Positions 8,119 to 25,891 of a DNA stretch of 64,000 nucleotides are shown here, piece by piece. A program made the translations under genes and the position numbers. Within the stretch, counting starts at the first letter, position 1. The number at the start of each line of letters is the position of its first letter. The stretch is taken from contig CAZOQJ010000001.1 of NCBI GenBank assembly GCA_964581905.1, forward strand, positions 21,653 through 85,652, in the 5' to 3' direction. The notes beneath the pieces are model-generated. The model did no database searches and was not told where the DNA came from. It saw nothing but the letters and a program-made list of their open reading frames with translations. The DNA is from an uncultured Pirellulales bacterium (GTDB lineage Bacteria; Planctomycetota; Phycisphaerae; Sedimentisphaerales; Anaerobacaceae).

Positions 8119-9573
8119 ATGATAATGGAGACAAACTCGAATAATTATGAGATAGGTTTGGAATTAGCTGAGGCGGGCAAACACACTGAGGCCCTTGCTT
8201 GTATACAAAAACACCTTCGAACAGCACCTGAAGATGCCCAGGCGTTGAATGATGCGGGGGCAGTTCTTCATTGTCTCGGCCGGTCGGATGAAGCCATCGA
8301 GCATCTTACCAAAGCAAGAAACCTAAGGCCCCATTCAACTGAGATATTGTGGAATCTGTCCGAGACCTACATGGCTGTCGGTAAAGTAAAAGAGGCAACA
8401 ATTCTTTTTGATGATATGCAACGGTTGGGAATATTAAATGCGGATGTACTTAACAGGGCTGCCACAATTTTTTTGAATCGAAACGATAAAGCCAACGCTA
8501 TAGAAATGCTGCTCCGCTCCCAGAAGATATGGTCTGAACAGGAAATCCTTAAGCCGGCACTCGAAGTAATTCGTTTGAAAAGGCCGAGGATAGCCTTCTT
8601 CTGTGGTGGCGACGGGATGACATTTCTTGACAAAATCATCGAGTTTACAAAACGGCGTTTCAATGTACGTGTCTTCGAGGGCCAGACGGAGGATGAACTA
8701 TACGAGCTTATGGTGTGGAGTGATATATCGTGGTTTGAGTGGTGCACTAATCTTGCAGTAGCCGCGTCGAAAAGGCCGAAAATCTGCAAGAACATTATTA
8801 GGCTGCATCGCTACGAAGCTTATGAGCAATGGCCGCAAGAGGTTAACTGGAATAATATCGACACTCTTATAACTGTCGGAAACGACATTACCAAACAAAC
8901 GCTTCTGGGTAAAGTTCCGGACCTTGAAAGTTATACCTCGTTGGTTGCCGTTCCCAATGGGATTGACCTTGGCAAGTTCAAACTGATTGACCGCCGGCAG
9001 GGTAAGAACATCGCCTTTCTGGCTAATTTGAGGATGGTAAAGAATCCCGCCCTTGTATTACAGTGCATGCAAAAGCTCCACTACATCGACCCTGGATACC
9101 ACCTGTTTTTCGCCGGCAGATTTCAAGACCAGGCGCTTGAACAATATTTAAGGCATATGGTTTGTGCTCTTGGGCTTGATGATGTGGTGTTCTTTGATGG
9201 ATGGCAGGAAGACGTAAACTCCTGGTTACAGGACAAACACTATATAGTTTCAACGTCCATTTGTGAAGGACACCCCGTTGGATTGTTAGAGGGTATAGCA
9301 TGCGGCCTGAAGCCGGTTATACACAATTTCACGGGGGCCAAAGATATTTTCCCATCGGAATTCCTGTTTAACATTTCTGAAGAATTCTGTGAGCAAATTC
9401 TTTCCGATAAATACGAGCCCCAAAAGTATCGCAAATTTGTTGAAGAAAAATATTCTCTAAAAAGCCAGTTGAGCAGAATAAACGAGATATTCATCCAATT
9501 CGAAGCTCAGATAGATGGCGAATCATCTTTGGATGCAACCGCTCCGATATTCGAGAGCAATGCTGTGGTGTAA
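8119..9573 (+). CDS. TPR-repeat protein fused to a GT-B (GT1/GT4-like) glycosyltransferase
   Basis: 484 aa with an AAGGAG RBS. N-terminal TPR-like repeats (ALNDAGAVLHCLGRSDEAIEHLTKA). C-terminal GT-B motif STSICEGHPVGLLEGIACGLKPVIHNF. Confidence 0.8.
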   Translation: MIMETNSNNYEIGLELAEAGKHTEALACIQKHLRTAPEDAQALNDAGAVLHCLGRSDEAIEHLTKARNLRPHSTEILWNLSETYMAVGKVKEATILFDDMQRLGILNADVLNRAATIFLNRNDKANAIEMLLRSQKIWSEQEILKPALEVIRLKRPRIAFFCGGDGMTFLDKIIEFTKRRFNVRVFEGQTEDELYELMVWSDISWFEWCTNLAVAASKRPKICKNIIRLHRYEAYEQWPQEVNWNNIDTLITVGNDITKQTLLGKVPDLESYTSLVAVPNGIDLGKFKLIDRRQGKNIAFLANLRMVKNPALVLQCMQKLHYIDPGYHLFFAGRFQDQALEQYLRHMVCALGLDDVVFFDGWQEDVNSWLQDKHYIVSTSICEGHPVGLLEGIACGLKPVIHNFTGAKDIFPSEFLFNISEEFCEQILSDKYEPQKYRKFVEEKYSLKSQLSRINEIFIQFEAQIDGESSLDATAPIFESNAVV

Positions 9574-9605
9574 TATTTGGTCAATAAAAGAGGATTACCA
9601 GTTTT

Positions 9606-24800: not shown

Positions 24801-25891
24801 AGCAGTATTTTGTAATATTGGCAAAGCTATATGAAAATAATCTGTTATCGCCGGATTTGAACCTTCCTGTCGATATTGAAAGACGGGATGTTGAGGAAAG
24901 ATTATTATGGCTTGCAGCCAATGTAGACATAAAATTCGACAAGCTGTTTGAATTGCTTGCAGGTCAGGGAGAAACGGAAAAACAACCGCTGGTTACCGTA
25001 TATATAGTAGCGTATAATGCAGAAAAGTTTATCGCTCAGGCCATCGATTCCGTTTTATCGCAAGTCTATAAGAATTTCGAATTGTTGATTGTTGATGACG
25101 GTAGTACCGACAAAACTAAAGAGCTGGTGGCTTCTTACTCGGATGACAGGATTCACTATATTTATAAGGAGCATAAAAATTATGCTTCGGGGGTGAACAG
25201 AGTGATAGCTGAGGCAAAGGGTAAATACATTATGGTTGTCGATTCAGACGACTTTATTGCTCCCGACTACATTGAGAAAATAGTGGCTTTTGCTGAAAAG
25301 CACCCGCAGATAGATTACTTTTATCCTGCCCAGCTTACTCTTGTGAATGAATCCGGTGACCCGACAGGCCAGCAGTGGAGCTATATGGATTTTTCGGATA
25401 ACAGTGTTCTTCCGTCATTCCTGTTTAAAAATGGCTATGGACCGATTCCGAATCCGGGCAGTCTGAAAAGGAAGACTTTGTTTGACAAGGTCGGATTGTA
25501 TGATGAGGTTGATACTGTCGAGGACTTTGTATTTTTGTGCAAAAATGCCCTGAAGATAAATTTCAAAAGAGTTGATGAGCATTCGACTTATTTCTACAGA
25601 AGGCATCGGCAAAGCAATTCCCTAAAGTTTGAGGCAAGAAATCGGATTATGGCTGATGTGCTCAACGAGATGGTCTCGATTTATCCGGCTGAAGTGTTAT
25701 ATCCACAAGTCGTGGATATAAGTGACGCCGGTTTGAAAGAGCAGCAATACTATAAATATGTAGTGGAGACTTTTTGCAGGCATGCTAACGGCCCAATGGT
25801 CCAATTCGGGCAGTATTTTCAAAAGTATGCGGTTTATTATAAGTCGAAGCTGTTGAGAATTACCGGGCCAAAACAGTTGGTTCCAAAATGA
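18803..25891 (+). CDS. giant (2,362 aa) poly-glycosyltransferase with at least 7 GT-type modules plus TPR
   Basis: Single uninterrupted ORF. The TTG start is the only in-frame start after upstream stops, so its exact position is uncertain. Module motifs: GT-A with [8 protein letters not shown]; GT-B/GT4 [40 protein letters not shown]; three classic GT2 heads ([98 protein letters not shown]); two further GT-A-like segments. Confidence 0.85.
   Translation: [2362 protein letters not shown]

Follow-up and report, generated by a model that had tools for sequence, protein, structure and literature searches.

To our knowledge, work on flagellin glycosylation has been confined almost entirely to Proteobacteria, Campylobacterota and Firmicutes, and our search of the literature yielded no report from Planctomycetota. 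Pseudomonas flagellin glycosylation islands lie inside the flagellar cluster, downstream of flgL; examples are the 14-gene island of a-type P. aeruginosa and fgt1/fgt2, with viosamine genes, of P. syringae. The a-type system uses a common first sugar, which is extended by a polymorphic island (PMC3958885). Caulobacter FlmG binds flagellins through a tetratricopeptide repeat (TPR) domain, modifies them through a GT-B glycosyltransferase (GT) domain, acts in the cytoplasm on short flagellins devoid of outer domains, and is expressed ahead of the late flagellar genes (PMC7591256). Here we describe a block of about 18 kb (8119-25891) between flgL and the filament cap gene fliD in a 64-kb stretch of DNA (the window) from a metagenome-assembled Pirellulales genome (2.57 Mb in 232 contigs, 87.6% complete, GC content 0.453). 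We conclude that this block is probably a cytoplasmic flagellar O-glycosylation locus whose likeliest substrate is flagellin. As read from its gene order and flanking signals, the locus is an ancestral core (genes I1-I4) joined to a recombining variable block (I5-I9), and forms a sigma-54-type unit between flgKL and a sigma-28-type fliD.

The first gene, I1, recalls FlmG in domain order, as its product is soluble with an N-terminal TPR and a C-terminal GT-B part, but it has 484 amino acids (aa) and about four TPRs as compared to the 596 aa of FlmG, and FlmG transfers pseudaminic acid, whereas no NeuB-type synthase was found in the present genome. An AlphaFold model made from 16 I1 orthologs (pLDDT 87.3, pTM 0.80) has eight TPR helices (about four repeats, aa 6-137) followed by a two-lobed GT-B domain of two Rossmann-like halves. 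The top Foldseek matches of this model, SPINDLY (SPY) and OGT of family GT41, share its architecture only: the domains are arranged differently (whole-chain root-mean-square deviation >20 Å), and the catalytic domain is assigned by Pfam to Glycos_transf_1 and Glyco_trans_1_4 rather than GT41. The catalytic part fits the GT4 enzymes BshA, HepE, TarM and GtfA at 3.3-4.7 Å, and pneumococcal GtfA, on which the GT-B part superimposes, is a GT4 protein O-GlcNAc transferase. A motif typical of GT4 enzymes, EX7E (E383..E391 in I1), shows at least 90% conservation, and dN/dS is 0.24 for I1 and 0.30 for I2. Searches of PDB sequences with I1, I2 and a 541-aa TPR-GT encoded near the flagellin gene brought up for the most part TPR proteins that were either designed or unrelated, along with GT2 enzymes of a generic kind, and were uninformative on function. 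I1 is a candidate substrate-recognising, priming protein glycosyltransferase. The initial annotation had supposed that the transferase logic of this locus might differ from that of known systems; the combination of TPR and GT-B is the one used by FlmG, OGT and SPY, and what does differ is the GT4-type catalytic domain and the giant fused enzymes that follow it.

The likeness to Pseudomonas lies in the placement of GT and sugar-synthesis genes by flgL within the flagellar cluster, in gene content that is polymorphic between close relatives (here with flgL-fliD gaps of 1.1-45 kb), in a glycan that is not a nonulosonic acid, and in the two-stage scheme that we propose below. In contrast to Pseudomonas, the core enzyme here combines TPR and GT4 in one protein, the extension enzymes are large fusion proteins (1185 and 2362 aa), the block precedes fliD rather than fliC, the phylum is Planctomycetota, and the system is known from its genes alone. 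As the initial annotation had held, the locus shows no pse/leg/neu genes and no Maf-type transferase: over the whole genome, at its 87.6% completeness, no match to NeuB exceeded the cut-off and none to Maf/MptE (MAF_flag10, PF01973) was found. The sole strong CTP_transf_3 match lies on an unrelated contig. On these empty searches we rejected a nonulosonic-acid or Maf system, and the sugar would thus be of another kind.

The tie to the flagellum comes from two comparison sets, 16 relatives from genus to order level and a census of 151 Pirellulales genomes in which I1 homologs were accepted at E values of at most 1e-40. The order I1-I2-I3-I4 behind flgL is common to the relatives from genus to order, with genomes having a short flgL-fliD gap deviating from it, and the identities (43-87% for I1, 48-89% for I3 and 25-70% for I4) are comparable to those of FlgL (38-82%) and FliD. 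I1 homologs occur in 76 census genomes, all of which have flgL, and in none of the 61 genomes that lack it; in 75 of the 76, I1 lies downstream of flgL on the same strand at a distance of 22-1647 nt (22-334 nt in 73). This adjacency, together with the enzyme content, upholds the earlier description of a glycan-modification locus embedded in the flagellar cluster.

The remaining core genes divide into two kinds. Syntenic orthologs of I2 were found in 13 relatives at 45-85% identity, with only a remnant in a further one, G021. I3 is present in 16 of 16 relatives, is retained even where the GT genes are absent, and gives a weak match, under the cut-off, to SycD/LcrH-type chaperones. I4 was recovered by tblastn in 15 of the 16, the last (G036) having an ORF at the same position with an alignment of about 25%. 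Among 17 I4 orthologs, six weakly match FliT and three match FlgN, but a PDB profile search with the family returned no FliT, its best matches being to ribosomal protein S20 at chance level, so the FliT/FlgN label derives from weak Pfam matches only; I4 is a candidate export chaperone. Most relatives have 10-25 kb between flgL and fliD; one has 45 kb, and five have 1.1-3.2 kb. In these five, I3 and I4 are retained without I2 or the variable block, and I1 is missing or reduced to its TPR part, G021 being an exception in that I1 is present beside the I2 remnant. We thus regard I3 and I4 as core flagellar genes; judged by presence and absence among the relatives, I1 and I2 act together with the variable block as a single accessory module. 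In 11 genomes without the GT domain, I1 is kept in a TPR-only version (160-200 aa, 52-61% identical), and this conservation argues for a separate role of the TPR part. The idea of one flagellin-binding TPR family shared by I1, I3, I8 and I9 found no support, as BLASTP showed generic TPR similarity only. In family f7 (e.g., G030:C20:17775-20739), two tandem I1 paralogs, 43% and 33% identical to I1, stand just downstream of flgL.

Nine co-oriented ORFs, I1-I9, lie between flgL and fliD (Table 1), or ten if one includes the radical SAM gene's cut-off tail. All are on the plus strand, as are flgL and fliD, so the co-orientation noted by the initial annotation is real; its inventory of ten ORFs as TPR proteins, GTs, methyltransferases, a radical SAM enzyme or fragments of sugar-nucleotide genes was essentially right, except that I4 is FliT/FlgN-like. 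The plus-strand order up to 7887 is flgG-flgA-flgH-flgI-(114 aa)-flgN-flgK-flgL. No membrane segment was predicted in I1-I9, with FliO and FliP positive as controls; Pfam and membrane-segment prediction revealed no flippase, ABC transporter or exporter, Wzx/Wzy or polyprenyl-phosphate transferase among the island proteins, and NCBIfam gave no equivalog for any of them.

Table 1. Coordinates of genes and signals of the flgL-fliD locus and of the flagellin gene, in window positions
Feature	Position	Strand	Evidence or context
flgL, hook-filament junction protein, left neighbour	6697-7887	+	Pfam Flagellin_N; orthologs in 90/151 Pirellulales genomes
GC-rich stem-loop CCCCGCCCC-TGCTGCA-GGGGCGGGG	7891-7915	+	Immediately 3' of flgL stop codon; read in the sequence
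17-mer TGTTTGATATTTATACA, TGT-N11-ACA dyad	7922-7938	+	Between hairpin/flgL and sigma-54-type promoter
Sigma-54-type promoter (GG-N10-GC) TGGTATAGAATTTGCT	7990-8005	+	114 nt 5' of I1
I1, TPR + GT-B/GT4, 484 aa	8119-9573	+	Pfam TPR + Glycos_transf_1
I2, GT2 (GT-A) with C-terminal extension of ~290 aa, 532 aa	9606-11204	+	Pfam Glycos_transf_2, E 3e-26
I3, all-TPR protein, 208 aa	11206-11832	+	Pfam TPR families
I4, helical FliT/FlgN-like protein, 102 aa	11833-12141	+	Pfam FliT, E 6e-5, under cut-off
I5, radical SAM	12222-13430 (ORF to in-frame TAA); 12222-13575 (frame with conserved tail)	+	Pfam Radical_SAM
I6, UDP-sugar 6-dehydrogenase remnant, 139 of ~440 aa	13625-14044	+	Pfam UDPG_MGDP_dh_N
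I7, FkbM methyltransferase, 377 aa from ATG 14050	14050-15183	+	Pfam Methyltransf_21, TIGR01444
I8, ~1185-aa fusion: GT-B half (Glyco_trans_1_2), weak methyltransferase-like stretch, TPR, GT2, FkbM	15194-18751	+	Pfam, whole protein and pieces
I9, 2362-aa fusion: weak GT2-like, GT4 (GT-B), unknown, GT2, TPR, unknown conserved, GT2, GT2	18803-25891	+	Pfam, whole protein and pieces
Sigma-28 (FliA)-type promoter of fliD, TTAAG-N16-CGATAA	25924-25950	+	Sequence match
fliD, filament cap, 790 aa, right neighbour	26030-28402	+	Pfam FliD_N + FliD_C
Flagellin gene, sole one found in the genome, 271 aa, D0/D1 only	48162-48977	+	Pfam Flagellin_N + Flagellin_C

Downstream of the core, the locus is a mosaic. 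In a genome of the same genus (G004), the DNA is collinear at 85-91% over 6641-12104 and again over 16927-27694, and the 4.8 kb in between (12105-16926; I5, I6, I7 and the N-terminal half of I8) are replaced by 4.5 kb of unrelated DNA, which codes for a PGA_cap protein and for the N-terminal half, unlike that of I8, of an 1815-aa giant. The two breakpoints fall at the end of I4 and inside I8, where its TPR block begins, so that the C-terminal half of I8 is 83% identical in the two genomes and the N-terminal half is replaced; I9 is 79-92% identical. A metagenome contig, L049, is collinear with the window at 88% over 2223-13572, past which only islands match (14045-14759 at 73%, 16989-17112 at 85% and 18774-19548 at 90%, the last being the start of I9); I7 matches, at 73% DNA identity, the FkbM portion of a fusion protein of 746 aa there. 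In this contig an intact cassette encodes a radical SAM enzyme of 449 aa, CapK-like, PHP and aminotransferase proteins, and a dehydrogenase of 455 aa, and continues with an FkbM/TPR/GT1 fusion (the 746-aa protein), a GT2/TPR fusion of 720 aa and a giant of 2984 aa. The slot in other relatives holds an HAD hydrolase, nucleotidyltransferases and giants of 1100-3987 aa, and matches between I9 and other relatives' giants (1400-3993 aa) are patchy, at 30-66%. When compared with G004, I9 has a dN/dS of 0.17-0.22 and the C-terminal half of I8 one of 0.24 (0.25-0.33 for flgL and fliD), values by which the giants are working genes under purifying selection. As judged from these alignments, the variable block evolves by exchange of cassettes and modules among related genomes, not by a single acquisition.

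The initial annotation had seen the whole block as an island of about 18 kb wedged between flgL and fliD, and suspected a foreign origin from stretches that looked AT-rich by eye. Two observations are in keeping with recent acquisition of the whole: gene content differs even inside the genus, and the GC content of 15110-25891 is 0.408 as compared to 0.453 for the genome, which places it at the 3.9th percentile. The composition is only modestly atypical, however. The left part (8119-15183) is ordinary at 0.448 (36th percentile), and the GC content at third codon positions of I9 (0.42) is that of flgK, flgL and fliD (0.42-0.44), so the low GC of I9 sits in the first and second codon positions and derives from amino-acid composition. 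I8 alone has a lowish third-position value (0.38, 6.9th percentile), and the variable block of relatives frequently has a GC content 2-5 points lower than its flanks. Moreover, I1-I4, about the first 4 kb, are syntenic behind flgL over genus, family and order and, as fixed genes of the flagellar cluster across the order, are no insertion; the slot itself is occupied in most relatives (gaps of 10-45 kb), and the closest relatives of I8 and I9 occupy the same slot in related Pirellulales genomes. No integrase or transposase was present among the Pfam matches of the island, no tRNA turned up, although no separate tRNA scan was made, and only short repeats at chance level were found at the flanks. 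With an ancestral core and no mobility genes or flanking repeats found, we reject a foreign origin of the whole block and consider its recent acquisition as a genomic island very improbable. What does stand from that earlier view is that part of the locus varies between relatives, as seen in the G004 replacement and the mosaicism of L049.

The variable block also contains what appears to be a damaged sugar pathway. In the assembled sequence, I5 has an in-frame TAA at 13428-13430 that is followed by 48 still-conserved codons; its homologs have 449-454 aa, and the closest is 89% identical and intact. I6 covers positions 1-138 of the 187 in the Pfam UDPG_MGDP_dh_N profile and 1-137 of the 413 in the NCBIfam profile for NDP-sugar dehydrogenases, and intact dehydrogenases of 437-455 aa follow the radical SAM gene in L049, L051, L053, L054 and L055. 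The three middle genes of the L049 cassette are absent from this genome, which has another full dehydrogenase-family gene elsewhere. By their reading frames, the sugar-precursor genes of the variable block are decayed here. Such decay recurs: L050 (7395-8487) and L051 (1639-2952) are two metagenome variants of one planctomycete locus, one of which has a full dehydrogenase of 437 aa behind its radical SAM gene, and its counterpart a dehydrogenase broken into pieces of 232 and 125 aa. At 60-70% identity, I5 homologs are found in Desulfobacterota, Geobacter, Phycisphaerae, Sedimentisphaerales and Brocadia. A radical SAM gene with an intact UDP-sugar dehydrogenase gene directly downstream occurs in three contexts that were read (L054 9001-11669, L055 9001-11571 and L053 9001-11540), two of them in flagellar clusters with TPR-GT2 and methyltransferase genes, namely after fliD-fliS in a Desulfobacterales metagenome-assembled genome and after flgL-fliW-csrA-TPR in Candidatus Brocadia. 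The Geobacter pair adjoins methyltransferases. A weak NCBIfam match of I5 (E 1.8e-10) to BlsE, a glucuronate-decarboxylating radical SAM enzyme, suggests that the enzyme acts on a uronic acid sugar, and the pair may make an uncharacterised flagellar sugar.

The putative substrate is small. Within the flagellin, which consists of D0/D1 only, the central stretch 141-190 is 32% Ser/Thr. Flagellins of 270-295 aa predominate in Pirellulales genomes with a full I1, and flagellins of 400-454 aa, in which an inserted central domain contributes the extra ~170 aa, predominate in those with a TPR-only I1 or none. When genomes were classed by the GT domain and flagellin length, 62 had the domain and a short flagellin, 19 had neither the domain nor a short flagellin, four lacked the domain and had a short flagellin, and two had the domain and a long one. 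On the FlgL tree these two traits change eight and seven times, respectively, and largely in the same places. Two flagellin sizes, about 275 aa and 400-454 aa, were seen in G022, G029, G034, G028, G156, G090 and others, and sizes are mixed within genera g27, g68 and g21. FlgL of the long-flagellin genomes of family f7 groups with family f5, and there are hints that whole flagellar loci have been exchanged between these families. Upstream of the flagellin gene (43884-47789) are a 541-aa TPR + GT9-like gene, a divergent GT1 gene (45506-46516, minus strand) and an unknown 406-aa gene; this stretch is a candidate second flagellin-modification set, and the 541-aa gene is patchy, being present in 12 of 41 relatives.

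One could envision glycosylation proceeding as follows. The TPR array of I1 would bind an unfolded export substrate in the cytoplasm, most likely the 271-aa flagellin, and its GT4-type GT-B domain would place a first sugar on Ser/Thr; I2, a GT2 enzyme, would add the next conserved sugar. The chain would then be extended and methylated by I8 and I9, which carry some seven GT modules and, together with I7, two or three methyltransferase domains, to give a strain-specific oligosaccharide, and the modified protein would leave through the flagellar type III system. I3 and I4 would be core flagellar helpers outside the glycosylation chemistry, and the variable block would diversify as cassettes and single modules are swapped between related genomes. 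A more far-reaching and tentative possibility is that the outer domains of Pirellulales flagellin are replaced by a glycan coat, the product of modular GT megaenzymes that dock through TPRs and work as an assembly line, with new glycans arising by module swaps at linker/TPR boundaries; single-module swapping inside giant genes would be akin to that in polyketide and non-ribosomal peptide synthetases.

Around half of Pirellulales have a conserved TPR-GT4 + GT2 core linked to flgL. The enzymes are unusually organised, with up to seven or more GT modules per soluble polypeptide and module-exchange breakpoints that can be mapped. The radical SAM-dehydrogenase pair in flagellar clusters of Desulfobacterota and Brocadiales hints at a flagellar sugar yet to be characterised, and decoration with glycan may substitute for the outer domains of flagellin in a possible trade-off. 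If confirmed, these points would bear on diversification of the filament surface under pressure from phages or grazers, and on protein-glycosylation engineering.

Several points weigh against glycosylation of flagellin by this locus. The locus is known only from the genes of a metagenome-assembled genome; with two precursor genes disrupted, the pathway may have lost part of its activity in this genome; and, given the persistence of its TPR-only versions, the TPR part of I1 appears to have a role that needs no glycosylation. In addition, only two of the independent contrasts on the FlgL tree are well supported and significance is unreachable, so the association of flagellin length with the GT domain is suggestive, not established. 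The flagellin gene, lastly, lies 22 kb from the island with its own adjoining TPR-GT and GT genes (43884-46516). This location would suit enzymes that act on other flagellar proteins (FliD, FlgK, FlgL or the hook), as the block stands between flgL and fliD and not beside the flagellin gene. The TPR proteins might also be mainly chaperones or regulators, and glycosylation a lesser function, in the manner of GmaR of Listeria, which is bifunctional, and the 11 TPR-only versions of I1 and the chaperone-like I3 and I4 agree with such a role. We nevertheless consider either variant unlikely: the GT domain tracks flagellin type and no visible feature of FliD or FlgL, the catalytic EX7E motif of I1 is conserved, and the TPR-GT9-like gene next to flagellin is patchy as compared to I1, which is near-universal in short-flagellin genomes.

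Alternatively, the locus could make a free or cell-surface glycan (a sheath, a holdfast or a swarmer-cell envelope) that has no flagellar acceptor and is merely co-regulated with the flagellum. About nine GT modules in all, methyltransferases and sugar-nucleotide genes do recall polysaccharide loci, and multi-domain GTs are known among enzymes that polymerise polysaccharides; chondroitin and heparosan synthases, as well as TagF-like polymerases, are among the PDB matches. The locus, however, encodes no membrane protein, exporter, flippase or lipid-carrier transferase, it strictly co-occurs with and adjoins flgL, and its enzymes carry fused TPR domains, a usual trait of protein-directed GTs, which leaves a surface glycan distinctly improbable.

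The signals at the two edges are consistent with a transcription unit devoted to the glycosylation locus. The GC-rich hairpin and the sigma-28-type promoter that had been placed at its left and right edges are both real as motifs. The hairpin is single in the genome, and L049 has a stem-loop at the equivalent position with compensatory changes, which argue for a real RNA or terminator structure; it is likely a terminator or 3' stabiliser of the flgKL transcript. Beyond it, the 17-mer occupies the same position in nearly all relatives, has one copy in the genome, and is a candidate enhancer-binding-protein site that may serve a dedicated activator. A motif [TC]GG[CT]A[CT]-N5-TTGC[AT] was seen by eye 40-130 nt 5' of the I1 ortholog in 11 of 14 relatives, six of which fit the strict pattern, and perfect TGGCAC-N5-TTGC sites precede flgB and fliK in the window. 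The I1 promoter was missed by a sigma-54 scan allowing at most one mismatch and was revealed only by comparison of the relatives' upstream regions; in a consensus scan of promoters and terminators, sites were no more numerous than in shuffled sequence. The sigma-28-type motif lies 75-95 nt 5' of fliD in 14 of 16 relatives, and a copy with one mismatch precedes the flagellin gene (48029-48055). With a sigma-54-type promoter before I1 and a sigma-28-type motif before fliD, the block would be its own sigma-54 unit and fliD a separate late gene. Two FliA/WhiG-family sigma factor genes in the genome exceed the NCBIfam cut-off (C33:3246-3911 and C1:4423-5079), and one of the two is on the contig of the window, about 17 kb upstream of it. 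Elsewhere in the window, two motB-like genes follow motA in tandem (32296-33743), both matching Pfam MotB_plug.

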